Source: a virus. Taken from it: 64,000 bases of DNA. Of this stretch, positions 21,603 to 63,400 are shown one piece after another. Position 1 is the stretch's first letter. The number at the start of each line of letters is the position of its first letter. The stretch lies in IMG/VR virus record IMGVR_UViG_3300002026_000005; one strand, 5' to 3'. The notes under the pieces are model-generated. The model saw only the letters and a program-made list of their open reading frames with translations. It ran no database searches and had not been told where the DNA came from. A program made the position numbers and the translations under genes.

Positions 21603-22295
21603 ATGACAATACGACAAATAATTAGTGATATTCTGCTCAGTGTCCGTAACTATCGTGTTACGGCTTCTGAGCAGATTTCGGATAGATACGTTGCGTATCT
21701 GATGGACTTGTATAGATCCATTCTAGTCAAGAGAGATCTAGACAAGAAGAAGAGACTCGATCCTGCCTACATCCAGACTCTCAGCTGTGTCAGCCTGATA
21801 CAGGCTAGTAGGTCTGAGTGTGAGGACTGTGATCCTGGCTGTGTCATAATGAGAACCGAACAGAAGATACCGAAGCCAATCGAGCTGAACACAGACATCG
21901 GCCTAACCTTTGTCGGAACAGTCACGGACGAACCATTCGACTTCAGCTCAAAATCCTACTCGAAGTGGAGTAAGTACAGGAGATGAACCGGAAAGAAACC
22001 CCGAGTCTACATGAAAGGGGATTACATCTATGTCGAGATAAACGACAGCCGCCTTGGTCTTCTAGAGAAGATAAAGGTTGAGGGCGTCTTCCAGAGTCCG
22101 ACTGAGGTTGATGAGTTGAATAAGTGTGACAAGTGTGGTAGTCACAGCATCGATGATGAATACAAGTTGCCTAGTCACCAAGTTCCTGTCCTGAAACAGA
22201 TGATACTCGAAGACCTACTCAGAGGCGTTCAACTACCGAGCGACAAGGTGAATAATTCTTCTAACGACATAGGTAGTGGAGTCAAAGCTGAATAA
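21603..22295 (+). CDS. hypothetical virion-module protein, with in-frame TGA at 21984-21986
   Basis: ORFs 21603..21986 and 22011..22295 share a frame, and the 24-nt gap is open. It ends in TAA. Confidence 0.55.
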
Positions 22296-31102: not shown

Positions 31103-33187
31103 ATGAAATGTAACTCGATAACTCTTGCCTCTAATGGGAAACCCTCTATCTTCTTCAAGATGGTTGAGGAACGTGATGGCTTTGATGCCGCCGTCGAACA
31201 GTGGGGTCGCATCAACTCCCAGAGATACAAAGAACTCGTGAGAGGAATAGAGAGGACCGATGAGAACGGGGAGTCGACTCTAGAGTTCTGGGACTTTGTT
31301 CGGGACTCTGTGGGTCGGAATGAATCCCGTCGGATGATCGCGAAGACGGCCGGCACTAGTCTTAATCCTGATGAGTGGGTAGAGGACGCAAAGGAACGGA
31401 TGGATGCCGTCCTGGAGAGATCGAAGGACAAGAGAACCAATGAGGAGGAGCTCTTCAACAGGGTAGCCAAGACTCTCAGGTCTTATCTAGACAGGGACTC
31501 TGTTCTAGGCTACAAGATAAATGACCTTACTGACATCGAAGCCAAGGGCGGCTACTACGTCTCCCAACATGATGTTGTACTTGACCCGAGGTTCGTAGAT
31601 TCAGACCATTCCTTCTTGCATGAGATGGTTCATGCCGTAACCTCCAGATACATCTCGTCAAAGGTAATGGGACTCGAGGAAGTAGATTCCTTCAGAGCCT
31701 ACAAGAAGGCTGGAGACAAGTTCTTCCTGGAAATAGAGAGGCTCTTCGAGAAGATGAAGAAGGACGGCAGCCTAGAGAATCAGTATGGGATGAGAACGAT
31801 GATGGAATTCGTCTCGGAATACTTCTCCAACGGAGAGTTCAAGGCTCTTGTGGATAAGAAGGATAAGGGACTCATGATGGAATTCCTCATGTGGCTGTTC
31901 AATGTACCAACAAGGATGGAAGCCGAGTTCAAGAAGTTTGTTGCCGGCATCGAGACAGATAAGGTGTTTGGGTATGACAATAGTAAGAGTAGCGAGACAA
32001 ACTCTCTTGGTGAGAACTTTGTTGCAAAGGAGGAGGTTGATGGTGTATCATCGAACAGCATAATTTCAAACATTAAAGAAGGTGATTATTTATTCTATGA
32101 TAGGATTATTAGAATAGATTCATTAAGTGTTGATGAAGGGATTAAATTCTCAACTTTGGATAAGTATGGAAATATTGATAGTGATGAAATGGGTTATCAC
32201 TACGCATTAAAATACTGAACTAATGACAAGGTGAAAATAGCTGATGAAAAACAGAGGAAAAAGTTTGAGAAAGCTTTTGCTGAAAGAAATTCTTTAGATA
32301 AAGATATAAGTTTTGGTATACGTAAGTTTCTTGAACCAAATAGTTATGGAAAATATTACTCAGACAATTCTGTTTATAACTATCTAGAAAATAATAGCGG
32401 ATTAAATATTGGTGATGTTTTGGAATTTGTATCAAAAACATCTTATCAATACAAATCTTTAGCTGAAGCTCTTTTGCTTGCAGTAAAGAAGTACAATATA
32501 AAGTCGAGAGTTATTCTTGACACAGACCAATATTTAAAAGAAAATAAAAATGCAGCAGCGTACTATAATGATATCAATAGAAACATTACTATTGGGAAAA
32601 ATTACACCGCTAAAGAATATGGGGCTAGAGCTGTTTTGCATGAAGCTATGCACGCAATTGAATATGAGATAAGAAGATACGATAACTCATTCTACAATAA
32701 AATGGATGAATTGTTTTCTTATATAAAAAAACATATTCCAGAGGAAGTTGATGAATACGGATTGACTCAAACAAAAGAATTTATATCAGAAGCTTTTTCA
32801 AACCCACAATTTCAGGCATTACTAAGTGTAATAAAATATGAAAGAAAAGATGGTAAGATAGTGACCCTATTAAGGGAAGTGTATGATTCAGTATTGAAAA
32901 TATTCAACCTAACAGACAACAGCGTTCTTAGACATGTGTTTGTTGCATACAGGGATCAACTAAACAAACCACTAAATAAGAGAAAAGAAATTGAAGACTA
33001 CACACTTCCTTTTACTAGAGCTGATTACTCGAGTCTCGATCAGAAAGTTGGTGTAGAAAACAAAACAGAATCATCTAATTTAAACAAGAAAGAACAGTCA
33101 GAACTCGAACTCGAATTCATTCAGAACCCTGACCTAATCGGTCTAACCTCAGTTGAGGAACTTTCTAAACAGATGGAGAAATGTTAG
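31103..33187 (+). CDS. tandem double zincin (HExxH) protein, with in-frame TGA at 32216-32218
   Basis: ORFs 31103..32218 and 32231..33187 share a frame, and the second ORF has only a GTG start. HEMVH is at 31619 and HEAMH at 32639. Both are followed by a paralogous YG(M/L)...EF(V/I)SE(Y/A)FSN..F.AL segment. The gene ends in TAG. Confidence 0.6.
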
Positions 33188-36600: not shown

Positions 36601-39448
36601 TTCCGAACAGGAGAGGATTCTGTTCTGGCAGTTGAGAGAGCTCGGACTGGTTATGATGAGAGACAGGAATAGGGACGAAGAATTCCAAGAAGACTACGAG
36701 GCTGACCCAGAATCAGCCGGAACCAGTCTAACTAAACAAGAAGTTCAGTGGAATAGGAGGCTTTTCGAACACATCAATAGGGTTGTCGACATGAATGCCC
36801 CTAATCAGGCTCTTGGTAGACAACTCGCTATCTTCCAACAGGAGTTCGATGAGCTTCCTGAACACGAGAAGAACTCCCTAAAAAGAACGGCTGCAGCCAA
36901 CCAGTCGGATGAACCCTGGAGATGACTTGAGTCCTTCAAGGAGTTTGTTCAGGACAACTATGTCATAGACAAGGGTTGGCTACCGATATGGACAAAGGTG
37001 AAGCCAAAGGCCGATGCTGATGGTTACGTCGAGTCTCTCGGTATGGATGAAGGCAGTGATGGTAGTGGAAAGATAAAGGCTGTTGAGTCTGCTCCAAAGA
37101 TGATGTGGATGAGGAGGGAATTCAAGACAGAGTACATGAACGATGACTACTCTGAGACGGATGGACGTCCTGACCCCGTGAAGTACAACGAAGCCTACTT
37201 CAATATGGAGCAGTCCAACACGAGGTTCGTTGAGCTCCACAACAAGTTGAAGACCTTCATGGACAGAACAGTCGAGTACTTTGGTGGAGGTATAATCGGC
37301 AACGGATTCATCCCCTCAGTTCGGAGTGATATGAGGTCAACTCGAAAAGCTATTGCTGAGGACGTGTTCCTACTGAAGGGAAGTGTTAGGAGTGAGGATG
37401 ATGAGGTTCAGGAGGGAAAGGGTTTCAAGAGCAAACTACTGAAGAAGAAAAAGAAGTTGGGAGAAGGTGTGAAGGTTTCCCATTCTGGTCAGAAGTTCGA
37501 GTACCTGAGTACCCACTACAACAAGAGACTCAACCAGATGAAGAAGCTCGACATCATCAAGAGGAAGACTGTTGAGGATAAGAACGGGAAGGCGGCGTTG
37601 GAAGATATGGATTCCTATGATGAACGCATGAGAGAATATCTGGACAAGCTTCATGGCAACGGAAAAGGACGAGTTGATGGGAAGTTCGAGCCGCTGTATC
37701 TTTCAGACACACTGAGTTTCGATCTGAATGAGAGCGAGCTCTGGAAGAGGGTGATGGAACTGAATGAGATGATCGAGTTCGAGAACGAGAAGAATCATGG
37801 AGATAATCTGGACTCGAATCTGAAGGAGACGATGAAGCTCCACATCTCTTCCAGCCGATACCATAAGCACATGCTCCAGATGAAGGACCAGGTGGATGGA
37901 CTAACATCCATAGGACGTTCTGGAGGTCTGAAGTATGAGAACCCGGGCACGTATGACTTGTTTAGTTGGAAACACTTCGGGAAGAGGACTCCTTTCGTGG
38001 AAGACTTCTCGAAGACTAATGCCTGGCAGTCTTTCGAGGACTGGGTTGATATGCACTACTACAAGACTGGAACAGATCCGAAGACTCTTTTCCATAGGGG
38101 AGTAAAGGTGGTCAAGAACATCTCATCTCTTCAGAGGATACTGGGATCAATCACGACGATGGTATCTAACTTTAGGCAGATAAATATCTCCATCCTGAAG
38201 CATGCGATTGTTGGGAGAGATTTCTCCTTCAGTAACTATTTGTGGGCAAGAAGGCTCGTACTGAATCCAAAGTTTGCTATCGACTGTATGAGCAAGAGTA
38301 AGAGGAAGAGGAATATTCTGGCTTCTCTTGTGGAGACACTCGGAATCATGACTGATACAACGGAGTTCGAAGACGGTATGAGAGGTGCGATGGCTAAGAC
38401 TAAGTCTGAGACTGCTCAGAATGTGGTGAAGGTCGGATACTGGTCACAGAACTTCCTCGAAACCAATGGTCAGATAATGGTTGCCATAGCAAAGATGAGA
38501 GCCGTGAAGGTCAAGAACAGTTCTGGAGAATTGGTGCCGATGACGGATGCCTTCGAGATGACAGAGATCGTGGACGGAAAAGGTGTAGCGAAACTTGGTG
38601 ACGGATACACCATCTTTAATCCGATGAGACAAGAGTGGGAGAAGTTGACGATGGACCAGGTTAGGGATGTTGCACTAAGCATCAGAAATATTCAGTCAAG
38701 TCTTGGAGGAAACTTCTACAAGAACAGGGCGGAGGCCATTCATCACAACAAGTTCATGGGACTCGGAGAACTTCTATTCCAGTTCAATAGACACGTTCCG
38801 GGTCATGCCAGAAAGTGGGGACAGCTGAAGTCTTCCTTTGATGAGGAGTATGGACGCAGTGTGAAGGGGGTGTTCGGAACACTCTGGGACAACAAGAGTC
38901 CTAAGGCGATGTGGAAACTGATGAGGACGGCTCTGTTCACTATGAAGGATGCGAAGAACAAGATGATCCTGAACGGAATAGATGAAACAGACTTCTACAA
39001 CATCAGATTCCTCTCAACAACGATGGCTTTTATGGCTGCGTCTGTCGTCATCTACAACCTGATAGCAGCAGGCGGCGATGATGATAAGTGGAAAAAGAAG
39101 GGGATCCTGCTGAATCTACTTGCGAGACAGATAGATGACATGTACTCAGAAGAAGGGTTCTTTACAGTTGGGGCCTTCTCTGAGAGTCAGAAGAAGTGGG
39201 CGAAACCTTTTGCCTCCTTGAGTGTGATGAATGAGAACTTTGAGCTCCTGTTCCAGGCAGTATGGGACGGGTTCAGGCTGATGTTCGGAAAAGAAATGGA
39301 GAGATATAAGGCGGGGTCGATGTATGGTGAATACAAGTTGAAGGACAAGTTCAACCAGGCTATACCGATATGGAGATCAATCTATAGACTTCAGAACATG
39401 CACCGATACAACAAGTCATACCAGAGTAGGATGATCAGATTCCTCTAG
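33611..39448 (+). CDS. giant cargo-like virion protein with an N-terminal zincin module and two in-frame TGAs (33761-33763, 36923-36925)
   Basis: The ATG at 33611, ORF 33869..36925 and ORF 36998..39448 all lie in one frame, and both gaps are free of TAA and TAG, giving 1945 codons. HEYGH is at 34145-34159. The gene ends in TAG and is followed by the bidirectional terminator. Confidence 0.6.
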
Positions 39449-42084: not shown

Positions 42085-42123
42085 GCTTTCTTTTCCTTTC
42101 TTTATTTCACCTGTTTGTACTCG

Positions 42124-42195
42124 TAGCCCCAAGAGGATTCGAACCTCTATACACTCCTTAGGACGGAGTAGTCCTTCCATTTGAACGATGGGGCC
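42124..42195 (-). tRNA. tRNA-Arg (anticodon CCT)
   Basis: Hand-folded cloverleaf. Acceptor GGCCCCA/TGGGGCT, D stem GTTC/GGAC, anticodon stem ACTCC/GGAGT, loop GTCCTAA, T arm AGAGG-TTCGAAT-CCTCT. Confidence 0.85.
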
Positions 42196-42199
42196 GTCG

Positions 42200-42273
42200 T
42201 GGGCCAGGGAGGACTTGAACCTCCGACCTTTTCCTTATGAGGGAACCGCGCTAACCAACTGCGCCACAAGCCC
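42200..42273 (-). tRNA. tRNA-Met (anticodon CAT); elongator Met or Ile2 type cannot be distinguished
   Basis: Acceptor GGGCTTG/CTGGCCC with one mismatch, D arm GCGC-AGTTGGTTA-GCGC, anticodon loop CTCATAA, T arm GGAGG-TTCAAGT-CCTCC. It lacks the three G-C pairs typical of an initiator tRNA. Confidence 0.8.
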
Positions 42274-42280
42274 TAACCTC

Positions 42281-42535
42281 CTAAAGGTCTGTGATAACTG
42301 GTACCGACTTCAGTTTTTCTCCTTCGAAAACTATTTTCGAAATTGTCTTTCCTGATTCGAGATAGATTTCTTCCCTATCCAGATACTTCTTCATGACAGA
42401 AGCTATTGCGGCCCTAACCGCTGTTGCCTCATCTGAATCCAACCTGTCTATAGAGACTTCTATCACCAAATTACCTTCCACCTTGTCTAGAGAGAAGACA
42501 TCAACTGTCTTCTTCACTTTTTCTTTTTCAGCCAT
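42281..42535 (-). CDS. hypothetical protein (84 aa)
   Basis: ATG ORF ending in TAG, directly upstream of the tRNA pair. Confidence 0.5.
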   Translation of the reverse strand: MAEKEKVKKTVDVFSLDKVEGNLVIEVSIDRLDSDEATAVRAAIASVMKKYLDREEIYLESGKTISKIVFEGEKLKSVPVITDL

Positions 42536-43130
42536 CCTGATTCTTCTTTTCTTTTTCTTCTAATCTTTTTCTCTCTTCGGTTATCGTCCAAACCAGACCA
42601 AAAGTATTTCTCTCCATAATTGGTTTCGAATAGTACTCTTGGTCCTTGACTGGAACAATGTCGTCTAGAGATTTTCCCTCATTGATTTCTGGTTGACTAA
42701 AAATCTTCTTCTCTATCCTCTTCTTTGCTGCCTGAGTTTTATTCAGGATACTTCTGATGTATTCTGAACCGTCTCAGAACTCGTCTATCTTTCTCCTGTA
42801 TTCCATCGAGGTCAGACTGAAGCGTCCAGACATTATTAGCCGGAAATCTTCTAGTCACTTCTCGTCTATTCTGTAGACGAACATATTCACGTCCTCTACT
42901 TGCTCGAACAGAGTCGAGTCAGTTGAGTCGTAGGAATACATCGTCTCGAATGTTCGAGGTCTATTGAACACGAAGTCCCTGTCGGAGCTCTGGACGATTA
43001 TGTGTCCATCATATTTGGGATAGTTTACATCGGACAACCAGGTGTTCTGGTAGCCCGTGTAGGAAATCTGTTTCCATACCACCTCATCCAACATCGGAAG
43101 GATTCAGGTATGGGCGTCTGTTCTACTCAT
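42528..43130 (-). CDS. hypothetical protein with three internal in-frame TGAs (43104-43106, 42855-42857, 42774-42776)
   Basis: The standard ORF covers only 42855..43094. In the same frame an ATG at 43130 lies upstream, and 42528-42854 is free of TAA and TAG. The frame reaches TGA 42528-42530, which overlaps the next gene's ATG. Full readthrough would end at TAA 42471-42473. Confidence 0.45.
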
Positions 43131-43187
43131 CTTATCTTATCTCTCTATATATTTCTATACTCCAGAGACATTCCACAACTGTTTGAA

Positions 43188-44012
43188 TTACTTGAAGATG
43201 ATGTCGTCATCACTTTCTACAGTGTCTTCAACTCCCTCTCTTTCCACTTCTGAGTACAACGCCGCCGTTATTTCCTTGTTTACATCAATGGCTCTGACTA
43301 CATCCACATCGTCTTCACTTACGTGAACTATGTACATCTCGTCGGCCTTCAGATCACCGATGATGTTGTATGACCACAACTGGGCCGAATACTTCATCAG
43401 GTTGTTTTCGGGATACTCCTTCATCTCATTGATGAGGTAACCCTTCGAAACCTTCAGGTGTTCAGACGTCTTGTAGTCGAAAATGATTCTCTTACCATCA
43501 GACTTCCGTACACACATGAGGTCGAGTGTTCCTGCCTTCATGAATTTCTCAGAGTGAACCCTCAACTCTGTTTGGATTTCGTCGTAATTGGTCTGGATGT
43601 CTTCGAGGAAAGGAACCAATGCCAGCTCGTGACCACAACGAGGTTTGGCATAGTCTCTATCCATGAAGAACAACTGGGCAAAACAATGGATGCTGGTGCC
43701 GAAATTCGTCGCCCTAAGTCCATTTATTTTCCACAGCTCCTCATAGAACTCTCTCGGTCTAACAACCAGATCCTTCCGAACCGAGTCCAACAGCTCCATA
43801 GCCTTCTTCTGAAGAGGAGCATCAACGTTCTTCACCTGCATCAGAAGTTGATGTAGGGCATCAACCTTTGCCTGATCCGAACGGGCTTTCATTGTGGCTA
43901 TCATCGAAGCTACGAAGGGCTTCACGAATCTCCTAGAAACCCAAGTCGTTACACTCTCGGCCTCTCTTCCATCAATCTTGTATTGATGCTTTCCTTCATC
44001 GAACTCTATCAT
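43188..44012 (-). CDS. PD-(D/E)XK (RecB/Cas4/YqaJ-like) nuclease
   Basis: The N-terminus reads GKHQYKIDG...SVTTWV. It has GTSIHCFAQ and the core LDLMCVRKSDGKRIIFDYKTSE (D...D-x-K). It ends in TAA. Confidence 0.65.
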   Translation of the reverse strand: MIEFDEGKHQYKIDGREAESVTTWVSRRFVKPFVASMIATMKARSDQAKVDALHQLLMQVKNVDAPLQKKAMELLDSVRKDLVVRPREFYEELWKINGLRATNFGTSIHCFAQLFFMDRDYAKPRCGHELALVPFLEDIQTNYDEIQTELRVHSEKFMKAGTLDLMCVRKSDGKRIIFDYKTSEHLKVSKGYLINEMKEYPENNLMKYSAQLWSYNIIGDLKADEMYIVHVSEDDVDVVRAIDVNKEITAALYSEVEREGVEDTVESDDDIIFK

Positions 44013-44090
44013 GATCTTTTCTGTGTTTATTTTTCTCTTGCTTTTCTTGTTTCTTTCTTCTTCTTTTACACCATTACTTCTTTTGATTCC

Positions 44091-45248
44091 TTAGAAAGCG
44101 AATGGGACGTAGAGCTTTCTCTTGAATGTGCATAGGAAGTTGAAGTCCTTGTAGAGATATTCCATCACGATCATGCCATCAACAACCTTTGTTGAAACAC
44201 ATTCCCCGTCATCAAATTGGGATAGGTATGTTGGCCTAACCTTTGCAAACTGCATCTTCTTTCTTCTCTGTTCTTCTTCCTTCTCGCTGCTAAGAGGTTT
44301 CAATTCATCTTCATCGAATTGGTCCTCATCGAACTCGACAATGATCTCGATGTCGGTTCCTTTCTTTCTGACTTTTTCTTCCCACAAGATGTGTTTTCTG
44401 TTATCAAGACAGTTGAGAGGATTCTGTGACGCATTGGTATAACCAACAAGTTCAACTCCTTTCACCTTTATCTCGACATCGAAATCAGATGACTCTGGCT
44501 TTGCGTTCATCATCCTGATAATCTTGTTCGGCTCAGATTGGTTGTGCATATTTATCTCCCTGATAACCTCAGTGATGATATCGATGTTCAGTTTCCCGAT
44601 GATAGAAAAGATTCTGCGTAGGTTTGATTCATGACTCTTGTTTTCCAACATGTCTGAAATCATCTCATCCACAACTTCCTTTGTCGGCTCTCCGAATTTC
44701 AGTAGGTAACGAACTCTCTTGGTTCTGTTTAGAAGGAACGATGAGTTTGCTGAGAAGTTAGAACACATGATGAAAGAAATACGGGAATCTTTTGTTCCAT
44801 CAAGAATGGATAGAAGAGTCTCTTCCTTTTTGTTGTGGTCATAGAGCTTATCGAACTCATCTATCCAAACAACTGCCTTCTGGTTGATAGTCGAAATCAT
44901 CTCGGGAAATCCTTCCTCATAGGAGTCAACGATTATTACCGGCATCTCAACAGCCAGAATGTTGCAGATCTGTTTTGAGAGGATACTCTTTCCTGTTCCT
45001 TTTTCCCCAACCAACATGATGTTGACCGTTTCCATCCGAATACGAGTAGCCATTACTCTCTCAAGGTCTTCGTTGTTGTTACCATAGATTTTCTTTGGTA
45101 GATCCAATGACTGAAACCCGGCGTCTTCCAAATAGAGTACGCGCTGCATCTCGTCGTAACGAAGTCTTCAGAATCCGTTCGGAATCTGTTTGTGCACGCT
45201 AATACCTTCTCGTGCTGGCATCAATCTGCCGTCGCTTAGTGAATACAT
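44091..45248 (-). CDS. AAA+ ATPase, with an optional N-terminal extension through TGA 45168-45170
   Basis: Walker A is VGEKGTGKS and Walker B is VVWIDEFD. The standard start is ATG 45149. An in-frame ATG at 45248 is followed by 26 codons, a TGA, and 6 codons before it joins the standard ORF. It ends in TAA. Confidence 0.7.
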
Positions 45249-45285
45249 CTTTCTTTGTTTTTTATGTTTATACTGACTCTTCCAA

Positions 45286-45317
45286 TGAAAAACCCGTACC
45301 TCCAACAGAAGTACGGG
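45286..45317 (-). terminator. rho-independent terminator downstream of the tRNA-Ile/Cys/Lys cluster
   Basis: The minus-strand RNA folds as CCCGTAC-(11 nt loop)-GTACGGG followed by UUUUU. Confidence 0.7.
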
Positions 45318-45322
45318 CAATG

Positions 45323-45395
45323 TGCGCCCACAAGGGTTCGAACCTTGGACCCGGTGATTAAGAGTCACCTACTCTACCAACTGAGCTATGAGCGC
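45323..45395 (-). tRNA. tRNA-Lys (anticodon CTT)
   Basis: Acceptor GCGCTCA/TGGGCGC, D arm GCTC-AGTTGGTA-GAGT, anticodon stem GGTGA/TCACC, loop CTCTTAA, T arm CAAGG-TTCGAAC-CCTTG. Confidence 0.9.
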
Positions 45396-45443
45396 ATTCC
45401 TTTTGTTTCTTTTTTCCTACTTCTTTTACTTCATTCAAACCAG

Positions 45444-45515
45444 AGCACAGAGCTGGGTTCGAACCAGCGCAAACTTCTTTTGCAGAGAAGCCCATTACCG
45501 CTCTGGCATCCGTGC
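45444..45515 (-). tRNA. tRNA-Cys (anticodon GCA)
   Basis: Acceptor GCACGGA/TCTGTGC with discriminator U, which is typical of Cys. Anticodon stem CTTCT/AGAAG, loop CTGCAAA, T arm GCTGG-TTCGAAC-CCAGC. The D stem is short. Confidence 0.8.
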
Positions 45516-45519
45516 GTTG

Positions 45520-45593
45520 TAGGGAGTCAGGGACTCGAACCCTGGACAACCGACGTATCAGGTCGGTACTCTAACCAACTGAGCTAACCCCCT
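45520..45593 (-). tRNA. tRNA-Ile (anticodon GAT)
   Basis: Acceptor AGGGGGT/ACTCCCT, D arm GCTC-AGTTGGTTA-GAGT, anticodon stem CCGAC/GTCGG, loop CTGATAC, T arm CAGGG-TTCGAGT-CCCTG. Confidence 0.85.
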
Positions 45594-45600
45594 CTATCCA

Positions 45601-45858
45601 CTACAGTCCCACTGAATCAAGATGTTCCCTGTAGGCTGCTGTCTCTTCTTCATTCATTACCCACATAAACTTGTTGGGTCTTCCCTGTGGTACAAACGCC
45701 CTCTTGCGGGCTACCAACTGGGGTTTATCTCCACTCACACTCTTACTCGCCTTAGCTTTCAGTGTCGATGTGAAGCTCGCTTTCGCCTCTCTCTTCGAAG
45801 AGATCTTACGAGCCTTCTTGTTGCCGCCCTGAGACGGTTGTTTTCCTGTTCCTGCCAT
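45601..45858 (-). CDS. small highly basic protein (85 aa)
   Basis: ATG ORF ending in TAG with a K/R/S-rich N-terminal half. It lies between tRNA clusters. Confidence 0.45.
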   Translation of the reverse strand: MAGTGKQPSQGGNKKARKISSKREAKASFTSTLKAKASKSVSGDKPQLVARKRAFVPQGRPNKFMWVMNEEETAAYREHLDSVGL

Positions 45859-45895
45859 TTCTTTTCCTCCAGTTTGATTTATTACTGATTTTTCT

Positions 45896-46138
45896 CTACC
45901 ATTCTTTGTTGTACCTGAGATACAAAGCCTGCTGTCTTATTCCATACATTCTTGTTAGAACATCAGCTTCACCTCCGTTTACAACATACTCAACGTCATT
46001 AGACATCTCTTTTCCATTAAACATCCCACTTGTACTTGAAATCATTCCATGCTCGTCACACAAAGACATTACAACCTCAGCCAACTCTTCTGATGTAGAA
46101 CATTTGTTCACTTTTTGAAACTTCTCCAATTCTTCCAT
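45896..46138 (-). CDS. hypothetical protein (80 aa)
   Basis: ATG ORF ending in TAG with an A-rich leader. Confidence 0.45.
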   Translation of the reverse strand: MEELEKFQKVNKCSTSEELAEVVMSLCDEHGMISSTSGMFNGKEMSNDVEYVVNGGEADVLTRMYGIRQQALYLRYNKEW

Positions 46139-46193
46139 TTTGTTTGATTTTTTGTTTGTTTTGTTTTATTTATTCTTACTTGATTACACCTGT

Positions 46194-46278
46194 TGGCGGA
46201 AGGTGAGGGGATCGAACCCCCGGACCGAACCCGGCCACAGCTTAGCAAGCTGCTGCATTACCACTCTGCCAACCTTCC
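46194..46278 (-). tRNA. tRNA-Ser (anticodon GCT), type II with a long variable arm and encoded CCA
   Basis: Acceptor GGAAGGT/ACCTTCC with discriminator G and encoded CCA. Anticodon stem GCAGC/GCTGT, loop TTGCTAA. Variable arm GGCCG-GGTT-CGGTC, T loop TTCGATC. Confidence 0.85.
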
Positions 46279-46297
46279 TAACTTCCTTTGTCCTTCG

Positions 46298-46370
46298 TAG
46301 TCCTCCCGGGATTCGAACCCAGAACGAACACCTTAGAAGGGTGTTGCTCTTCCATTTGAGCTAGAGAACT
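46298..46370 (-). tRNA. tRNA-Arg (anticodon TCT)
   Basis: Acceptor AGTTCTC/GAGGACT, D arm GCTC-AAATGGAA-GAGC, anticodon stem ACACC/GGTGT, loop CTTCTAA, T arm CTGGG-TTCGAAT-CCCGG. Confidence 0.85.
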
Positions 46371-46389
46371 ATTTTTCCAATACTGCTTA

Positions 46390-47091
46390 CTACTTGAACA
46401 TGTAGTTGTACACCTCTTCAATGAAATCCCACCTCTCTTTGTTTTGAACTTCAGAGAAATCTATTGAAGCATCTACATCAACTGGACGTACAAGTAATCC
46501 AATGTTGTAGTCGTAGTGAATACTTTTTACTTTTCTTCCCCATATCGTTGTGTTTATGTGGCCTTCAAGGAGAATACCGGTACCATCCTTTTTATCCTTA
46601 GCGGCTCGAACAATCTCAGAAAGTTCTAAACATCTATCAGATAGATCATCAGTAGTCATTGCAAGATTTCTATCATACCCTCTATCTTCATTCATAGAAA
46701 ACTGTTGTTCCATTGATGCTCTAAGCTTGTGAATAGGGATATTATTACTACGAAAGAATTCCTTTATAAGTTCAACTACAGAATCAAATCTGTTTGAAAG
46801 ACGTTTCTGCTCATTATTCTTCACCAACTCCATTCCTGATGGGTTAGTTCCATGATAACACATACTTAGTTTGCATGATATGCTTTGAACAGTACAACCT
46901 TCTCTACCTAAGTGAGAACATGTTCCGCAACAAAGTCCTTTCTTCTTACAAAAAGCCCCGTTGCATGTGGTAAGACCCGACTCTTTTCTTATACCACAAA
47001 AGTTCGCCTTATTGTTTATGACGTCAAGTATTCTACATGCCTGCAAATACTTCTCTCTTTTCCAACTAGTTGTTCCAATAATTGATTTCAT
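46390..47091 (-). CDS. Cys-rich hypothetical protein (233 aa)
   Basis: The N-terminal half contains CGIRK..C.GAFCKKKGLCCGTCSHLGREGCTVQSISCKLSMCYH. It may be a metal- or Fe-S-binding protein of the CxxCxxCC type. The gene is AT-rich and ends in TAG. Confidence 0.45.
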   Translation of the reverse strand: MKSIIGTTSWKREKYLQACRILDVINNKANFCGIRKESGLTTCNGAFCKKKGLCCGTCSHLGREGCTVQSISCKLSMCYHGTNPSGMELVKNNEQKRLSNRFDSVVELIKEFFRSNNIPIHKLRASMEQQFSMNEDRGYDRNLAMTTDDLSDRCLELSEIVRAAKDKKDGTGILLEGHINTTIWGRKVKSIHYDYNIGLLVRPVDVDASIDFSEVQNKERWDFIEEVYNYMFK

Positions 47092-47145
47092 TTGATTTCT
47101 TTTTGTTTTGATTGATTTTATTTTCCTACTTTAAAAATATTTTTG

Positions 47146-47217
47146 TCGTCCCTCAGGGAGTCGAACCCCAAACGGCTGGGCCAGATCCAGCTGTGTTACC
47201 AATTACACCAAGAGACA
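47146..47217 (-). tRNA. tRNA-Gln (anticodon CTG)
   Basis: Acceptor TGTCTCT/AGGGACG with a weak U1-G72 pair, D arm GTGT-AATTGGTA-ACAC, anticodon stem GCTGG/CCAGC, loop ATCTGGC, T loop TTCGACT. Confidence 0.8.
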
Positions 47218-47845: not shown

Positions 47846-47929
47846 AATTTTTCTTGTTAGATTTTGTTTGATTTTGTTTTTGTTTTTTCTGTTTCAGTTC
47901 CAGTCGAACCAGTCCTGGACTGGCTGAGC

Positions 47930-48781: not shown

Positions 48782-49012
48782 CTTATTTCATGTAGCAATC
48801 TCGTTCTCTTTTGAGTAAAGTTTTCTCATCTCATCCAAGAATAGATATGTTGCCACGTTCACTTCCCTTTCGGAGAAACCAGACTCTTTAGCGTGCTCCA
48901 TGAAATCCTTGTAAGAATATTCGTTTCCGATCGATGTAAAGTATCCTACGGAGAATTTTCTTATCTCATCAAGTCTACTATCCTTCTTAGGCTGCTGTGC
49001 CTCCTTCTGGTT

Positions 49013-52000
49013 TCAAGCCTTCTTCTCGGTCTTCCAAGTCTTCACATAGACAGACGTGTCTCCATTTGGCTTCTCTTCGTAACCCTGTCCAAGCAACCAC
49101 TTGATGATGGCGTGCTCTGAATGGGATCCATTGATGAAGTTGTTCTTACTAGAATACTCAGTCGAGTCCATCGCGAAACTTGCTCCTGCCTCAATGGCTT
49201 TCTCCATGTTGGCTTTCGTGTTCTCGAACTTCAGTTGGGATGCCCCGAATTCTCCTTCACCGCCTGAGTTTGAGACGAAAACGATGTCGTCCGACTCATA
49301 GCTTGTGTCGTTCACGGGAATTCCTCTAGTCTTCGCACTGTTGGCATACGACAGAGTCGAACTCCTCTTCTCGTTGTAGATACCCTTCTCGGCATAGATG
49401 AACTTGTTGGAGATAGAGGACTTCCTCATATCCTTCCTAGTCTGTTCCTGTTTCGATTCAGTCACGGCATCCAGAGTGAATCCGAACTTCTTTGTAGCCT
49501 TCTCTCCATCTGGATCTGATTTCGGACCAAATCTCTTGATGGCATCCAAAAGGACTTCTCCGTGACACCTGTAGCTTGTGCCTTTTCCGTGGGCACCGAA
49601 ACAGACAAGGGTTTTGTCGTCGAGGTTTCCACTCAGGATCTTGCTCACTATCCAGCTCCTTCTTTCGGGTTCGGTTTCTTTCGTCGTCATCTCTTCTCCA
49701 TCTTGACCGATGAAGACCTTGTGGGTGTAACCATCTGGATCCAGCTCAGACATCAACCAGGCCTCAAACAAGTCTACTGACCTATTCAGGTTTAGGTGGT
49801 CGTCGGCTCCAAACATTTCGGGGTTGCCGTAGTGTCTGTTGCGGGACATGTTCTGGGCGCCTCTGCCTATGAAGACGTAGTCGTCCATCACGCCGTTGTC
49901 GTCTGATTGTTCCTTCAGGGTCATAGAGAGTTTGGAGTTGTTTATGTTTCGGGACTTCTCTGTCTTCATCTTGTCCTTCACAAGAACAAGAGCCTTGTCA
50001 AGCAGTTCAGAACTGAAAGAGACCTTGAACTTCTCTATCTCTTCTACCATTGTCTCTAAGTCTATTATCTCATCGTAACGGAAGATGATTCCATCTAAGT
50101 CTGAACCATCCTGATTGGATGAGACAACTTCGGACAACATGTCTGTCATCGCGTTTCCGGTCATCATCAGTCGTACTCCCAACTTCTCGGCTATTCTGAT
50201 AGCTCTGTCATTCGTACTCTCAAACATCTCGATATCGTTTCCGTCTTTGTCTTTCGTCTTTCTGAATAGACTTCTCGAAACTGTTTGGAGTGACGGCAGC
50301 CCGAACTCGAAGAACTTTCCATTGGATTCTGATAGGATCGGAACCTCTATGTAGACATTGATCTTTTTCTTTCCGTCTTTTCTGTCCCCAATCTTCTTGA
50401 AGAGTTTTCCATTATCATTCGACATCACCCTCAGGAAACGGACAGAAGTCTTAGACAATTGTTCGTTCGTAACCACACTCGGAATCATCAGGTACGGAGA
50501 ACCAGAATAAGTTTCCCAACTATCCATCTCAAGCACTCTTACCCCATCTACTTCTGACATCCAACCTTTGTCGTTCACGACACCCTCATTCAGACGAGGC
50601 ACGACATCAGAGTTGTAGGCATTGTTGCCATGAATCTCATCAAGGATGTTGATGCCTCCGTTACCTTCCCGAAGGAAGTAGGTTGGGTCATTCAGTTCGA
50701 TCTTCATCGCATCCGTGAAAGAAGTAAATGATTGACCCTCGAAGCCCAAGTTTTCCAAGAAGAATCGGGGAGGAATAACCTTGATGACGGAGTTGTTGCT
50801 GAAATCCATCTGGTTAGAAAGGATAGTATGCTTAATCAAAAGTACCCCAAATTGTTTCTTTACCTCAGATATTCCTCTCTCAACTTCTGTGCCTCCATTG
50901 TTGCCTTCGAGCATCGACTCAAGTTCATCCATGATTGTCTGGATGAAAATCCGATCACGAGGATCCTTGAATTGGAACAGACTCATGAAGGAGTTATCCT
51001 GGGTTTCACCAGGTTGGGTCATCGGCACCAGCTTGTGGACGATCGAGTCCTCATTGAACTCTCCAGACAACCTAAGGATGTCTATCAGCTCAACAAGACT
51101 TCCAATAGACTTGAAGCCGGCCTTCAGTTCCTCTTCATTTGGAGCAATATTCCTCAACATAACCTTGAGGTTATGGATACGGCTATTTCTCTTCTGACCA
51201 ACATCGAAGCTGAATACTTGCTCATTGGATTTCGCTTTGGAGTTAAGTAGGGTTCGGAGGTTGACAACGGCATCCCAAAGTTCTGGGAACGTCGCCTTAA
51301 GTCTTTGCCCCGAATCGGTTCTCTTCACGGCATCCTTGTCTGCGATAGTCTTCGGTTCAACCATGTCGATCCTGATTACTCTTCCATTGGAATAGACATT
51401 GAAGAGTTTCATTCCAATAAGGAATATCTTCTCTCTCTGTATCTGGGCATCAATTCCCTTCTTTCCGGCTTTCAACATCTGGTCTTCGAGATTCTTCCTG
51501 TAGTAATTGAACATGATCTTTCTCTCCAATGTCGATGTGATGGAACTGATGTAGTCGACATCCCTATTGAAGGCATCTAGTCTCTGAAGCACACCCAGGA
51601 ATGCGGGTGAATACTTCATGAAATGGGGAGCAATAATTCCCAAACTCTTGTTGAGAGCCTTCGTGAAGAACGTCTTCAATACGTCATACTTACTGTCTGG
51701 CCCATAGATTGCCTCAGCAACAGGAGTCCCGTCAATAGTCCTTATACAGTCTTTTGCTTGTGACACTTTTTCCATCTTGCTCTTGAATTTTAGTGTGTTC
51801 ATCACTTCTGGACCACTGCTACGGGTATCGGCGTCAACTACTTGAGTTGCTTCCTGTACCCTGAATGCTATCCCGTTTATGTTCTTGAAAATGTTCAACA
51901 TCTCCAACTGGAAAGCCATGTCGGTTTTCGTCATCGATCTCTGTCCATCCTTATCACCAACAACAGAAGCTGCATGGGCTTTCAGGGCACTAAACATCGA

Positions 52001-57697: not shown

Positions 57698-57718
57698 TTG
57701 TTTGATTGTTAGGTTTGT

Positions 57719-58477
57719 TCAGGCACGCTTATTTCCAAGCATGCTTCTGATTGTTGTTATTAGGTTCTCGAAAAATGTCCACACCGATTCTGGTATGAAC
57801 GAAGGTCGTCTGTAATACTTCACACTGACGTCCTCATACATGTCCGCTAATCTTTCTTCTAGCAAGATCTCTCTCGCCTCATCCAACTCCACTCCACTCA
57901 TCTTCATCTGGGAAGACAGTTCGTCTTCACCGATCTTGAACATGGCTTTCGCCTCCTTCAGGATCTTTTCTCTTGTTTTCGCATCCAAACTCCAGAAGAT
58001 TAGGTGAAACACTTCGTGTCTCAGAACCTTCTTGTTTGCACCCTGCGATAGGTGTATCATCCCGTTTGCCATGTAACCCCACAGCTTACGGCCTTTCTTC
58101 TTTATTATTCCTTCATGAAAACTAACAAGGTCCTCGTCTCCGAGAAGCCTATCTATCTCCTCAATAACTTCTTCATCACTCTCTATACTATTTCCAAGAT
58201 GTCTCGAGTCTTCCTCGAAAGGTTTGGTTCTAAATATATCCTCTACGTCCCTAAGTAAACTTTCTTGATCATCTTTCGGATCCTTAACGGTCTTCCCGGC
58301 CTCAACTATTGGAGCTGTCTCTATCGAGTCTGGTTTCTTTGCCCTACTTACTCTCATCTTCTTCACGAGCAACTTCATCCTGCTCTCTGGGGAGTCCTCG
58401 AAATGGGTCAAGATCTTTCCTTTCGCATCCCGAACACTTCCGACGTCTGTGGTCAGACCAAAGGTCTCAACCAACAT
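57719..58477 (-). CDS. zincin-like HExxH metallopeptidase module, in frame with both flanking ORFs
   Basis: HEVFH lies at 58004-58018 and is followed by EERLADMYED. The module is joined upstream through TGA 58571-58573 plus 31 open codons. It is joined downstream through TGA 57719-57721 plus 7 codons to the polymerase ATG. Confidence 0.6.
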   Translation of the reverse strand: MLVETFGLTTDVGSVRDAKGKILTHFEDSPESRMKLLVKKMRVSRAKKPDSIETAPIVEAGKTVKDPKDDQESLLRDVEDIFRTKPFEEDSRHLGNSIESDEEVIEEIDRLLGDEDLVSFHEGIIKKKGRKLWGYMANGMIHLSQGANKKVLRHEVFHLIFWSLDAKTREKILKEAKAMFKIGEDELSSQMKMSGVELDEAREILLEERLADMYEDVSVKYYRRPSFIPESVWTFFENLITTIRSMLGNKRA

Positions 58478-58570
58478 CTCTTTGTAGCTGCCGTATTCCT
58501 TACCGACTCTATCTACACTCAGATCCTTTCCGATCCTGTCCCCGTGTCTTGCCGACTTACCAAAACTGTT

Positions 58571-60397
58571 TCAGTTGATATTCCTCTTCATGTCTTTCCA
58601 CATGCCGTGGTTCAGAAGTAGTTGTTCCAACTCGACTTCAGTCATCTCGACAGACTTCTTCTCGAAAAGACTTCCTTTTACTACAGTCCCATCAGTGATG
58701 ACACCAACTGGAGTAGAAACGATCGAACTCATCTGGGAATCACTAAGTTTAGTTCCGTCTCCGAAGTCGGTTCTCATGTCGAAGTGATTGAAGACCGAAA
58801 CCTCATAGATGGTTCCACTCGCATCCGAACGGGGCACTATCTCCATCGTCTTGAAAACTCCTGCACTTCCCTTTGGTTTCCGAGTGGTTGTACTGGAGTC
58901 TCTCCACGTAATGGATACACGCCCACCTTCTTTCGATGCCCTAATAGTTTGAGTCATAAGGTTCTCGTCATACATCCCATTACTCCACTCAGTAGACCCG
59001 AGTATTCCACTCTCGACAAGACTCGCAACCTCATCAAGTGTCGTGTTACAATACTTGATACCAGTGTCTTCACTCTTGTAGGCCTTATCCATCTTGATTG
59101 GCCTATAGTCGTGACCCGTAACAAACACCGTATCGAGCACTAGTTTCAGGGCCTCAGGGTTCTGTCTCCCAACCAGACTTCCGAGAAGGAAGTTTATGGT
59201 GTTGTCGACATCCCTATTGTCTGTGAGTGTTCCTGTCTGGAGAGGGATGTACATGAATCTCTTCTCACCAGATTGGTCATTGTACTGGATGCGGGTGTAG
59301 ACTTTTCCCACTTCAAAAGAAGGAGCACCAGCCACATTGGTTCCGGACTCATCGACGCTCACGAACTGGTTGGAGGCCATAGACACGTGGAACAACTCTA
59401 CCTTGTCGGCTTTCTTCCCGAACGCCGTTGTCAACTTCATCTGACCCCAACCTGACTCGTCCTTTCCTCTAGCCTTTATCACCCTGCCTCCAGTTGTACC
59501 GAAAACTTCCACCGAGCTACGGAAGCCCTTGTCGACCTTGATGTTTTCGAAGAAGTCGTGGCGGAAAGCAGACAACTTCTCTCTCTCCCTATACATCTGG
59601 AGCAACCTCAGACTCTCTCTCCTAAGAAGGATTTCGTCGGCCTTTATGGCTCTCGAGATTTCTGGAGTAGAGACCCCTATAGACTTGTTGGCCTTGATTC
59701 GGGCACGGGCGTCTTCCATCGAGGAAGTTATCCTCCTCATGTAGTCGTCCGTAACCTTTATCGTCGGAATTCCGTACTCCACAACCTCCTTAGTGTTCCC
59801 ATCAATCACAACGGTTCTCTTTGAGGCAATTGGGAGGTTCTCGGCAGAGAAGTCATAGTGTTCCTTTCCGACAGCACTCTCATCGAAGACGAGGTCTATC
59901 TTGAAACTCTTGGCTGATACTGATGATGACGCCTCAAACATCTGTCTCTTGGCCGAGTCATCAGCAACCTCATAACCGAACTCGGTTCTGTTTAGTCCCG
60001 ACATCGGCTCTATGGGAAGAAGGATATCACTCAGCTTCTGTTCATTCTGGGGAATGGACTTGATGATGGACTCGGCCACGGCATCGAAGGTTCTGAGCTT
60101 CTGCTCCCCATTCTCGATGTGGGCGATTCCCTCTATAAAGTAGTCCTCAGCCTTCTGGTTTCTGTCCATAAGGAGACGAGCAATGTTCTCGTACTCAGTC
60201 TTCAGAGACGCCTTATTCCTCATGAAAGTCTCACCAGTAATACCGAGTTCCATAAGCAAACTCTTGATAGAGATCGTTATCGGAACCCCAGTAGACTTGG
60301 CACTTCTACGAGTCTGGTCAGTAAATTCTCTCTCCCCAATCCTCCTGATAGCTGCGGAGATCAACTCCATTGCCTCTTCGGCACAAATTCCTATCAT
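58571..60397 (-). CDS. N-terminal module of the polymerase polyprotein frame (608 aa, function unknown)
   Basis: The ATG at 60397 is bounded upstream by an in-frame TAG. The ORF ends at a TGA and continues in frame. Confidence 0.55.
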   Translation of the reverse strand: MIGICAEEAMELISAAIRRIGEREFTDQTRRSAKSTGVPITISIKSLLMELGITGETFMRNKASLKTEYENIARLLMDRNQKAEDYFIEGIAHIENGEQKLRTFDAVAESIIKSIPQNEQKLSDILLPIEPMSGLNRTEFGYEVADDSAKRQMFEASSSVSAKSFKIDLVFDESAVGKEHYDFSAENLPIASKRTVVIDGNTKEVVEYGIPTIKVTDDYMRRITSSMEDARARIKANKSIGVSTPEISRAIKADEILLRRESLRLLQMYREREKLSAFRHDFFENIKVDKGFRSSVEVFGTTGGRVIKARGKDESGWGQMKLTTAFGKKADKVELFHVSMASNQFVSVDESGTNVAGAPSFEVGKVYTRIQYNDQSGEKRFMYIPLQTGTLTDNRDVDNTINFLLGSLVGRQNPEALKLVLDTVFVTGHDYRPIKMDKAYKSEDTGIKYCNTTLDEVASLVESGILGSTEWSNGMYDENLMTQTIRASKEGGRVSITWRDSSTTTRKPKGSAGVFKTMEIVPRSDASGTIYEVSVFNHFDMRTDFGDGTKLSDSQMSSIVSTPVGVITDGTVVKGSLFEKKSVEMTEVELEQLLLNHGMWKDMKRNIN

Positions 60398-60465: not shown

Positions 60466-63400
60466 CTAGCAATTCCTGATGTTCGAGAACAGGCCGTTGC
60501 CGGCGTCTTCATTGTTGTTCTGGAGCATCTCTATCAGGTCTGATGGGTACAGGAAGGAACTCTTCTTCAGACTCTTGTTTATCATCGTTACCAACTCTTC
60601 CTCTGTTGTCTTGCTGCCTATTTCCATCTTTACTTTCTTCCCGGTTACTCCCATAATCGAGAAGAAGAATCTTCCTCCTTCATCGTGAATGAGCTTCCTC
60701 AAGTAGAGTTCTTTCACGACTTTCCCCACAAGCTCATTCTCGAACGGAACAACCTCATTCACGTCTAGGTTCTCTGAGGGTTCAGATGCCTCGTTAGATT
60801 TCCTCTGGTTCAGGTCGTTCTTGTAACGTGCTGTGTACAACCCCAGTTTCAACATTGCTGCCTCATCCAGGATCTTGTTTCCGAACCTCATCAGGAGCTC
60901 CAAGTCGTTCTGGACTCTCTCACTCAGGAGGTTCAGGTCTCCGTACTCATCCAAGCTGGTTTTGTTCTTAGCTGTCTTGGCAAGGAAGTCCTCAAACCTC
61001 TTATTAAACCAGGTCAAAGCATCCGAGAAGATCCTTCTCTCTCCTTCAGTCAGACTATTGACGATACCAAGGTTCCCGACTACAGTCTCTCTCACAGCAA
61101 TGGACATCTTACGAGACACGTTCTTCGGATCAAACTCACCAGTCTCCTCTGGCTCTCTTGTGTTTTGGTTCCCACTCTGACTATCGTTACCGAGAGAGTT
61201 GTAGTAATCCTCCTGCTCCTGTCTCTGTTGTTCTTCCGAACTTCCAGATGTCGCATCAGGATCTACTCCAAACCCTTCGTTCACTCCACTACTTCCCTCA
61301 ACGTCATCAGTCTGAGACTGGTTCTGGACAGGTGCCGGCTGTTGCTGATTCAGGTCATTCAGGTTCTGTTCCTGAGTGAGACCCACTCCGCTATTACTGC
61401 CACTATTCCTATTGGCATCAACGGCTGCCGTCCTCTCCTTACCTGACTTGATCTCTTCGATGGCCTCATCTATTGTCGTGATTACGTCGTCCCTATCTAG
61501 GGAATGGTTCCAGTTCTTCTCGAAGTAGGCCTTTGTCCTCTTTCCGAGTTTGAACGGATTCCCAAGCAGAAGCTCTGCCGCCTTCGATACGCTGTTGCCG
61601 ACTTTAGCCAACTTTGATTTCTCTCTGTTCAGACTCAACAACTTCTTCTCCTCCGGATCCTTCGTCTGTCTCCAAGCCTTGTCGAAACTCACTTCTTCCT
61701 CGTTTATCTCCTTGCTATCCTGGAGCTCCTTCAGTCTATCCTTCTTCATCTGTTCGAGAGTAGACAGTTTCTTCTCCGTGTCTTCCTTCGAGTCCAGTAT
61801 GGCCTTGACATTGGCTTTGTCTTCCTTCTTTCTGTCCAGCCTGAATTTGTTCCAGTTCTTTCTCTTTTCCCGAAGGATCTCTCTCGGATTCGAGTGGAGA
61901 CTCATCAGTCTCTGGTGGTTGCTGGCATACTCAGAGGTAGACTCATTCAGCTTTCCGATAGAAGAGAGATAGTCCTGGAACTTTTGGGCATCATGGATAC
62001 TCTTTATCTGGTTCGGATCCTTCAGCATCGCCTTCAGGTTCGGGTCAACCGTTTTGTCTTTCTCAAGACGACCCCAGGCTTCCGTCCTCTCCTTCTCTTT
62101 TCTCTTGATGGATTCCCTGTTCAGCCTGATATTGTTTCTGATACTCAGCTTCTCCTCACGGGAAATCTTCCTCAAACCTTTCTTGTCTAACATAAGGAGA
62201 GTTCTCATCGTCTCATTCTGAATCATTTCCGTCTCTATCTGGGCGTTCTTCTTGATGTAGTCTTTCGAGTTCTGGTCAAGCTGTTTTCCGCTGTTATCCA
62301 CAATGGTCTTCATGTACTCGGCCTCAGCCTTGTTCATGTTGGATTCATTCTCTCTCACCTGCTTCAGGATCTTGTCCATCTTGTAGGCTCCCTGAAGACG
62401 CTCCTTGAAGACAACGGCTTTCTCGAGTTCCGACAACTTCCTGGTGGAAGCATCTGTCTCTATCTGGTTCCAGACAGCTCGGGCATTCTTTAGCCTCGAA
62501 ATCTCTTCCCCGAACTCTTTCTTCCCAATAGTGACTTTCTTTCCGTCTACTTGGGTCTCGACCTCTTTCTCCTTCTCGAGCATCCCTATTCGGGCATCAA
62601 CTCTCCCATTCTGGATGGCATCATAGTAGGAAGAGATGCGGGCGTCATCTTGACCTGTTTCCGTCATGTGTTTAGCGAGACCCTGGAGATTCTTTTTCTC
62701 CCTGATCTCATTCTTTAAGCCCTTTATTTCACTGTAGAGACCCGGGACGTTCATTGGGTTGAAGACACCCATAATCATACCGGCCCTCACTGAGTTCCCG
62801 AACTCATTTGAAACAAGTCCGTTTGTGTCTCCTATTCCTGTCATCGCCTTTGCTACTGTTCCGTAGTCATTGAAGAGATTCTTCGCGTTCTTTATAGTGA
62901 ACTCGTTCAGTCCGACTCCGTCCTTTCCATACTTCTCATCTCTCTCTCCCGGAACATTCGGCACATATCATCCGTTCTTGTTCTTCTTCCAGAGTGTTCC
63001 CTCCAGTTGGTTGTTGGCTCTCTGTCCCGCAACGTCCTGAACACCTTCTTCAACTCCTTCCATGATGGAACCGATCATCTGTTTCATGAGGAAACTCGAT
63101 ATCTTTCCGGCATTCGTGTTTCCGAGCGTCCAGGGCATCATCCCCATTCCACTCTGAGCATAGTCACCCCACTGGAGAGCCATGTTCTCGGCACGAAGGT
63201 CGTTCATTCCTTTTGAGGCCTCTAGTCTTATGTAGTCATCTATCTCGGGTGGAATCTCTGCCTCTGGAGACAGACCGTTCCTGGCTCTGTAACCGTCCTG
63301 AAACTGTTCCACTCTCTCCTTGTAGGCTCCACCAACTTCGGCATTCGTCTCCCTCTCTCTGGCATACCTGTCAGCCGCGAAACGGACTCCTCCAGACAAG

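Follow-up and report, generated by a model that had tools for sequence, protein, structure and literature searches.

A crAss-like phage that probably reads TGA as tryptophan encodes a long tRNA(UCA) with a variable-arm loop identical to the tRNA-Trp anticodon loop

The 64,000-nt stretch of viral DNA held as IMG/VR record IMGVR_UViG_3300002026_000005, hereafter the window, belongs to a crAss-like phage with in-frame TGA codons in many of its genes, and among the eight tRNAs of the window neither ARAGORN nor Rfam detects a TCA or CCA anticodon. We found that the missing decoder is an effect of the window edge: the window is 64,000 bp of a 93,753-bp circle, and a 96-nt tRNA(UCA) sits between replication genes, 15,654 nt past the end of the window at base 64000. 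Judged from its sequence and from the residues that homologues carry at TGA sites, this tRNA is very probably the decoder, and TGA tryptophan (Trp). Its long variable arm is a hairpin with a CCA-containing loop, and we put the chance that this hairpin is a handle for the tryptophanyl-tRNA synthetase (TrpRS) of the host at about even. Taken as a whole, the explanation that we consider best, and likely, is a phage-encoded tRNA(UCA) lying outside the window that would insert Trp at TGA, with host TrpRS using the CCA-loop hairpin. A first-pass annotation of the window had proposed that the decoder was encoded elsewhere in the phage genome, the replication module being outside the window, and the tRNA(UCA) was indeed found there. 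The other sources that it had entertained, namely supply by the host, near-cognate decoding or a host that uses genetic code 4 or 25, are no longer needed, as the phage encodes its own tRNA(UCA). It had not foreseen that TGA would also occur inside the replication genes, or that the decoder would be no ordinary derivative of tRNA-Trp.

The remainder of the genome was recovered through exact-protein look-ups, which identified the same phage as NODE_1 (93,808 nt) of ENA assembly ERZ2286684, 99.99% identical over 18.9 kb. At a place within the window the two ends of NODE_1 overlap by 55 nt, from which we derive a circle of 93,753 bp. Five look-ups in all allowed the remaining 29.7 kb (genome 64001-93753; L015, L019) to be rebuilt from NODE_1, and a 2,962-nt overlap between the window and the reconstructed part contains zero mismatches. 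Profile searches with the window proteins matched the muzzle, capsid, ring, portal and TerL families and identify the phage as crAss-like. Signature virion genes of Crassvirales are present (PF25731 at 6.5e-171, PF25702, PF25710, PF23898 as a precomputed match, phrog_6547 and phrog_6681), and the portal matches PDB 7qog at 1.4e-91. Within the window the strands are skewed, with a plus-strand block from 1 to 39.5 kb followed by a minus-strand block.

The tRNA(UCA) gene lies on the minus strand at genome positions 79654-79749, which correspond to L015:13010-13105 and to bases 18616-18711 of ERZ2286684 NODE_1. It was called by ARAGORN, scores 51.4 bits with the Rfam tRNA model, and occurs as identical copies in two other assemblies (L016, L017), three in all. 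The cloverleaf is of the 7/5 type, with a 7-bp acceptor stem that starts with A1-U72 and C2-G71, discriminator G73 and a normal T arm. The D arm, GCCG/AGUGGUCAUAA/GGC, is of the class II type and resembles that of the phage's own tRNA-Ser(GCU), its stem consisting of 3 bp plus G13.A22, and the anticodon loop is CU-UCA-AA. The variable region, some 25 nt long, folds into an 8-bp stem closed by the 7-nt loop CUCCAAA, identical to the anticodon loop of bacterial tRNA-Trp (C32-U33-C34-C35-A36-A37-A38). The molecule carries the long variable arm, G73 and class II D arm of tRNA-Ser without a Ser anticodon, and it lacks the hallmarks of bacterial selenocysteine tRNA (tRNA-Sec), which are an 8-bp acceptor stem with a 5-bp T stem and a 6-bp D stem.

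ARAGORN finds 19 tRNAs on the full circle, 11 of them outside the window (Gly-TCC, Asn-GTT, Asp-GTC, Tyr-GTA, Met-CAT, Thr-TGT, Glu-TTC, Phe-GAA twice, Leu-TAG and the one with TCA), and no tRNA(CCA) or other tRNA-Trp anywhere in the genome. The first-pass annotation had recommended searching the rest of the genome for a suppressor tRNA with a TCA anticodon, a TrpRS and release factors. The tRNA was found; no release factor or aminoacyl-tRNA synthetase family appeared among the phage proteins scanned or the precomputed Pfam hits, in a scan that was not exhaustive.

TGA behaves as a sense codon throughout this genome. Under translation table 11 the genes look tightly packed, and all open reading frames (ORFs) that terminate in TGA continue in frame into the next ORF under table 4. 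The codon occurs 1.6 times per 1000 codons in frame and 37.8 times per 1000 in the other two frames. About 40 in-frame sites were found genome-wide, spread over every module. The window has up to 26 candidate sites, of which about 10 are doubtful and 16 are well supported (Table 1), so that the earlier estimate of at least 23 readthrough events holds in its order of magnitude and in its inclusion of TerL and portal, and exceeds what is well supported. Profile or homologue alignments cross TGA in six window genes, which encode TerL, portal, ring 3/4, ring 2, muzzle and an AAA ATPase. Outside the window, profile matches cross TGA in genes for a DnaB-like helicase (three sites), a Sak4-like protein (two) and a peptidase (two or three). 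The share of Trp codons written as TGA is 6.7% in the structural block, 16.5% in the minus-strand block of the window and 18.4% in the replication block, and TGA recoding in this phage extends to early genes rather than being confined to late ones.

The meaning of the codon was read from aligned homologues. Relatives of about 35% identity are too distant for reading the TGA sites, at some of which distant relatives carry varied residues, and closer metagenome relatives and large homologue sets were used instead. The Sak4-like annealing protein, of 222 aa and with thousands of full-length homologues, has TGA at positions 42 and 106, and both positions are Trp in 47/47 aligned homologues. Trp also stands at the portal site in 3/3 relatives of 43-45% identity, at the TerL site in the nearest relative (L021), at the muzzle site in gp44 of crAss001 and at the ring 2 site in L003. 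The three TGA columns of the DnaB-like helicase hold I/Y/V, F/L/I and L/W/Y, with Trp in 10/40 sequences at one site, and Ser was seen in 2/40 sequences at one site only. Since homologues carry Trp at TGA positions, we infer that TGA means Trp in this phage; glycine (as in code 25), serine and selenocysteine (Sec) do not fit the alignments. The code 25 alternative of the first-pass annotation is likewise contradicted by the residues aligned to TGA sites.

To learn how widespread the variable-arm loop is, we scanned IMG/VR and one genome per prokaryote species with the pattern CTTCAAA, 24-45 nt, GGTTCGAATCC, which requires a UCA anticodon loop and a common T loop with a long variable region between them and leaves the variable arm itself unconstrained. 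Of the hits, ARAGORN confirmed 27 as tRNA(UCA) genes 90-100 nt long, and 24 of these are distinct. Two are genuine tRNA-Sec genes (Actinoplanes and Pelotomaculum), and both lack a UCCAA loop. In the non-Sec long tRNA(UCA) genes, that of this phage included, UCCAA was present in the variable region in 23/23, nearly always in a hairpin loop, and the commonest loops were CUCCAAA, GUCCAAA and CGUCCAAAA. Among 75 other class II-length tRNAs of the same loci the motif occurred once, in what is probably a misparsed member of the family. When the 23 were aligned, the cloverleaf with its variable-arm helix was 88.8% paired, against 63.1% for shuffled sequences and at most 45.8% when slid, and the four inner pairs of the helix were 78-100% paired with up to five pair types. 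A1-U72 is found in 19/23 and G73 in 22/23, and the tRNA of this phage has both. Most of the 23 have a D arm of the tRNA-Trp type (UAGUGUAAUGGUAGCAC). The tRNA of this phage is in the minority here: its D arm is class II and Ser-like, as it otherwise is only in L027, L032, L045, L116 and L141. The five other phage records of this minority, only one of which is complete, contain no crAss capsid gene. We also observed a long tRNA(UCA) with a CCA-loop arm at 4597-4692 of a 6.6-kb contig in a Phoenicibacter metagenome-assembled genome (L145), which is probably phage or prophage DNA. At L037, ARAGORN reports a tRNA to which it assigns the four-base anticodon 'aaac'. GUCUCCAAAAC occurs in its variable region, and the call is probably a misparsed tRNA of this family. 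One pattern scan for TAG suppressors with a Gln-loop arm gave a single ambiguous long tRNA(CUA). Full-text literature searches returned no description of a CCA-loop variable arm.

These features suggest how the tRNA might be charged. Bacterial TrpRS recognises its tRNA through the CCA anticodon (C34-C35-A36), G73 and A1-U72. In the mechanism that we propose, host TrpRS would charge the tRNA(UCA) with Trp, taking the CCA-loop hairpin as a substitute anticodon handle, and would accept this tRNA since the loop lost from the true anticodon arm is presented by the hairpin instead. On the ribosome the UCA anticodon would read UGA in competition with release factor 2 (RF2) and, by U34 wobble, probably UGG too. 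The tRNA needs transcription only and can therefore exist before the TGA-containing replication genes are translated. With no TrpRS in the proteins scanned, the phage must rely on the host enzyme, a situation in which an identity handle would be useful. The more general idea, that the hairpin is a portable aminoacylation handle which separates reading by the synthetase from reading by the ribosome and is here mounted on a class II (Ser-like) scaffold, strikes us as just as likely to be right as wrong. Several points weigh against the proposed decoding and charging. Seryl-tRNA synthetase (SerRS) also uses a class II-type D arm, a long variable arm and G73, all of which are present here. A class II variable arm projects from the elbow, far from the anticodon, and it is not obvious that the anticodon-binding domain of TrpRS could reach it. 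Some TGA sites align with residues other than Trp (L/M/R/N in ring 3/4, and Leu in the portal of crAss001), and 10/16 window sites, including all four in the giant ORF, were called solely from frame continuity or gap filling.

Other readings keep parts of this picture and change the rest. The tRNA(UCA) might be the decoder, with G73, A1-U72 and C35-A36 sufficient for charging with Trp and the hairpin having some other purpose, such as recruitment of an anticodon-loop modification enzyme, stability of the fold, competition with RF2 or a sponge for a host anticodon nuclease, or being a remnant of a duplicated anticodon arm. We think this unlikely, though it deserves weight: the conserved motif includes bases like A36-A37-A38, which some modification enzymes read, and its conservation proves selection without naming the target. 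Moreover, according to work cited in a passage of Borges et al. (10.1101/2021.08.26.457843), E. coli charges with Trp an opal suppressor tRNA-Trp(UCA) that has no extra arm. Yet the conserved bases are exactly U33-C34-C35-A36-A37 of tRNA-Trp and occur alongside the Trp acceptor-end set in 19-22 of the 23 tRNAs, and a mere remnant would not hold an invariant loop on covarying stems across unrelated phages. If instead the host decoded TGA, through code 4 or 25 or a near-cognate tRNA-Trp(CCA), the phage tRNA would be incidental. Of the code 4 phages considered by Borges et al., in the part cited above, only about 35% had a detected suppressor tRNA, which would be in keeping with such a supply. 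It is nevertheless highly improbable here, given a conserved phage tRNA with an exact UCA anticodon in three independent assemblies, aligned residues that exclude Gly and so code 25, and the fact that Bacteroidota, the only hosts from which Crassvirales are known, use the standard code.

The body of the tRNA raises the further question of whether TGA could be serine. A class II suppressor that accepts serine could arise from tRNA-Ser(UGA) by one anticodon change, and a resemblance to tRNA-Ser is seen in the D arm GCCGAGUGGUCAUAAGGC, in its 3-bp stem with G13.A22, in the length of the variable arm and in G73, while the anticodon loop is one base from CUUGAAA and SerRS ignores the anticodon. We nonetheless find a serine identity very improbable, since the columns at TGA are invariantly Trp at two Sak4 sites (47/47) and Trp or large hydrophobic elsewhere, the acceptor stem begins with A1-U72 and C2-G71, unlike the G1-C72 and G2-C71 of bacterial tRNA-Ser, and the variable-arm loop is that of a Trp anticodon. 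Serine had been the identity first suspected from the D and variable arms, and it was given up in view of the Trp columns. That TGA might encode Sec, with the tRNA a tRNA-Sec, has in its favour the UCA anticodon, the long variable arm and G73, and is hardly credible in view of the 7/5 acceptor and T arms and the D stem of 3-4 bp with an 11-nt loop in place of the bacterial 8/5 arrangement and 6-bp D stem. The general Rfam tRNA model also outscores the tRNA-Sec model, about 40 TGA sites lie at Trp positions, and the genuine tRNA-Sec genes from the same scan have no UCCAA loop. A Sec identity was ruled out by the fold, and the 'SeC' label given by ARAGORN reflects the anticodon only.

Code 4 recoding with phage suppressor tRNAs has been described, including in crAss-like phages, in passages of Borges et al. 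(10.1101/2021.08.26.457843) and Yutin et al. (PMC7886860), and the predicted decoder would be an unusual variant of the known phage suppressor tRNA(UCA). The recoded code 4 phages share with this one a host that presumably uses the standard code, in-frame TGA at Trp, a tRNA(UCA) of their own and no detected phage TrpRS or release factor. The same part of Borges et al. reports suppressors in only 35% of code 4 phages, suspects non-canonical tRNAs, and raises the question of how host synthetases charge the suppressor tRNAs of recoded phages. In the phages of these passages recoding is concentrated in late, structural and lysis genes, whereas here the TGA share is 18% in replication and 7% in structural genes; nor do the passages mention a long variable arm or a CCA-loop hairpin, which is here carried on a class II-type body. 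Phage tRNA(UCA) also reads UGA as Trp in the AP1 pair of TrpRS and tRNA-Trp(UCA) from phage metagenomes (Seki et al., PMC12636597) and with the TrpRS/RF1 operon of Jade phages (in the Borges et al. passage). The AP1 and Jade phages carry their own TrpRS, and this genome has none in the proteins scanned.

Bacterial tRNA-Sec (selC) resembles the tRNA(UCA) in its anticodon, G73, long variable arm and ARAGORN label. The phage tRNA departs from it by having 7/5 arms where tRNA-Sec has 8/5, by its short D stem and by a variable-arm loop that duplicates the anticodon loop of tRNA-Trp, and many of the phage's TGA sites align with Trp. Class II tRNA-Ser and the serine-accepting allo-tRNAs (Mukai et al., PMC5389517), which also occur with UCA anticodons, share the long variable arm, the Ser-type D arm and G73. 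What sets the phage tRNA apart is a canonical 7/5 branch instead of 8/4 or 9/3, together with an acceptor end of the Trp type (A1-U72) and decoded codons that point to Trp and not to Ser. The tRNA-Trp(UCA) of code 4 bacteria such as Mycoplasma and Spiroplasma likewise reads UGA (and UGG) as Trp with a UCA anticodon; unlike the tRNA described here, it is an ordinary class I tRNA with a short variable loop and a co-evolved TrpRS.

The Trp anticodon loop that is copied and conserved in the variable arm offers a concrete and testable hypothesis for how host synthetases may charge suppressor tRNAs. If it is true, the class II scaffold here, as against a tRNA-Trp body in most of the family, would mean that the module either moved between scaffolds or arose repeatedly. 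A real handle design would also explain why long tRNAs of 93-100 nt have been labelled 'SeC' or overlooked. If confirmed, the arrangement would show that tRNA identity and decoding have been separated in nature, a precedent of direct use in genetic code engineering.

The tRNA genes and well-supported TGA sites of the window are collected in Table 1. The window tRNAs are exactly eight, all on the minus strand, and Rfam cmscan at the gathering threshold returned the same eight as ARAGORN and nothing more. They bear the anticodons listed in the first-pass annotation, which had named a TCA tRNA within 1-64000 as the finding that would count against it; none was detected by either program. The T-arm-like string near 47900 that it had set aside as only a hairpin is not a tRNA gene, as a permissive Rfam search of 47700-48100 finds none.

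Table 1. tRNA genes and in-frame TGA sites of the window, in window coordinates
Feature	Position	Strand	Support
tRNA-Arg (CCT)	42123..42195	-	ARAGORN; Rfam 49.7 bits
tRNA, CAT anticodon (Met or Ile2)	42199..42273	-	ARAGORN; Rfam 63.8 bits
tRNA-Lys (CTT)	45322..45395	-	ARAGORN; Rfam 66.7 bits
tRNA-Cys (GCA)	45443..45515	-	ARAGORN; Rfam 57.6 bits
tRNA-Ile (GAT)	45519..45593	-	ARAGORN; Rfam 66.3 bits
tRNA-Ser (GCT), the phage's ordinary class II tRNA	46194..46278	-	ARAGORN, Rfam; D arm resembles that of the UCA tRNA
tRNA-Arg (TCT)	46297..46370	-	ARAGORN; Rfam 60.5 bits
tRNA-Gln (CTG)	47145..47217	-	ARAGORN; Rfam 44.7 bits
TGA in TerL (gene 2481-4580, residue 285)	3333..3335	+	phrog_6681 covers residues 17-676; Trp in nearest relative L021
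TGA in portal (gene 4959-7613, residue 314)	5898..5900	+	phrog_6547 9-795, P22_portal 142-692, PDB 7qog 11-781; Trp in L021, L023, L024
TGA in tail ring protein 3/4 (gene 11312-12010, residue 99)	11606..11608	+	PF25710 covers 1-213; single ORF in relatives, L/M/R/N there
TGA in collagen-repeat tail fibre (gene 14624-16888, residue 111)	14954..14956	+	frame continuity only
TGA in gene 20356-20943	20734..20736	+	readthrough fills otherwise non-coding gap to next gene
TGA in gene 20946-21224	21144..21146	+	gap filling only
TGA in tail ring protein 2 (gene 21603-22295, residue 128)	21984..21986	+	PF25702 covers 5-222; Trp in L003
TGA in muzzle protein (gene 23698-27564, residue 897)	26386..26388	+	PF25731, phrog_28748; aligned with Trp of crAss001 gp44
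TGA in gene 31103-33187	32216..32218	+	frame continuity
TGA in gene 33869-39448	36923..36925	+	frame continuity
TGA in AAA ATPase (gene 44091-45368, residue 67)	45168..45170	-	phrog_2376 covers 54-367
TGA in giant ORF 47930-60397	48788..48790	-	frame continuity only
TGA in giant ORF 47930-60397	49013..49015	-	frame continuity only
TGA in giant ORF 47930-60397	57719..57721	-	frame continuity only
TGA in giant ORF 47930-60397	58571..58573	-	frame continuity only
TGA in 1205-aa ORF (60466 to beyond window end)	62968..62970	-	frame continuity

The giant ORF at 47930-60397 on the minus strand is a single ORF of 4155 aa if its four TGAs are read through; table 11 breaks it into fragments of 283, 2894, 252 and 608 aa. 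Neither Pfam nor PHROG gives a match for it, its sole homologue is itself, and a search for homologues bridging its TGA junctions returned only the phage's own fragment. Its location makes it a candidate for the virion RNA polymerase or cargo block of crAss-like phages.

Megablast of 7.9 kb of the phage against a phage collection gave no match, and an IMG/VR scan with a 1138-aa phage protein gave no relative; of this phage itself, IMG/VR contains no more than a 4.6-kb piece. The IMG/VR relatives L003 and L005 (G006, G007) are distant crAss-like phages with 35% portal identity, one of them 100% complete at 94,957 nt. Both lack tRNA genes, and the genes that could be aligned contain no in-frame stops; the 19 tRNAs and the recoding are therefore specific to the lineage of the phage described here. 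In two other relatives, L023 and L024, with 60-69% capsid identity, the capsid and TerL matches each come in two pieces (L023 8827-11107 and 2835-5222; L024 10001-11792 and 2463-5066) with 0.3-1.1 kb of unmatched DNA between, which suggests introns, inteins or inserted homing genes.

Two further observations concern the window itself. The gene at 14624-16888 on the plus strand encodes a tail fibre with a block of collagen-like Gly-X-Y repeats (PF01391, residues 184-239). An independent 8.9-kb contig from another sample (L010) starts at exactly the base where the window starts, a point through which NODE_1 continues, and another contig of the same phage measures 94,131 nt. The coincidence at base 1 could reflect a physical genome end, a terminal repeat or an assembly break.

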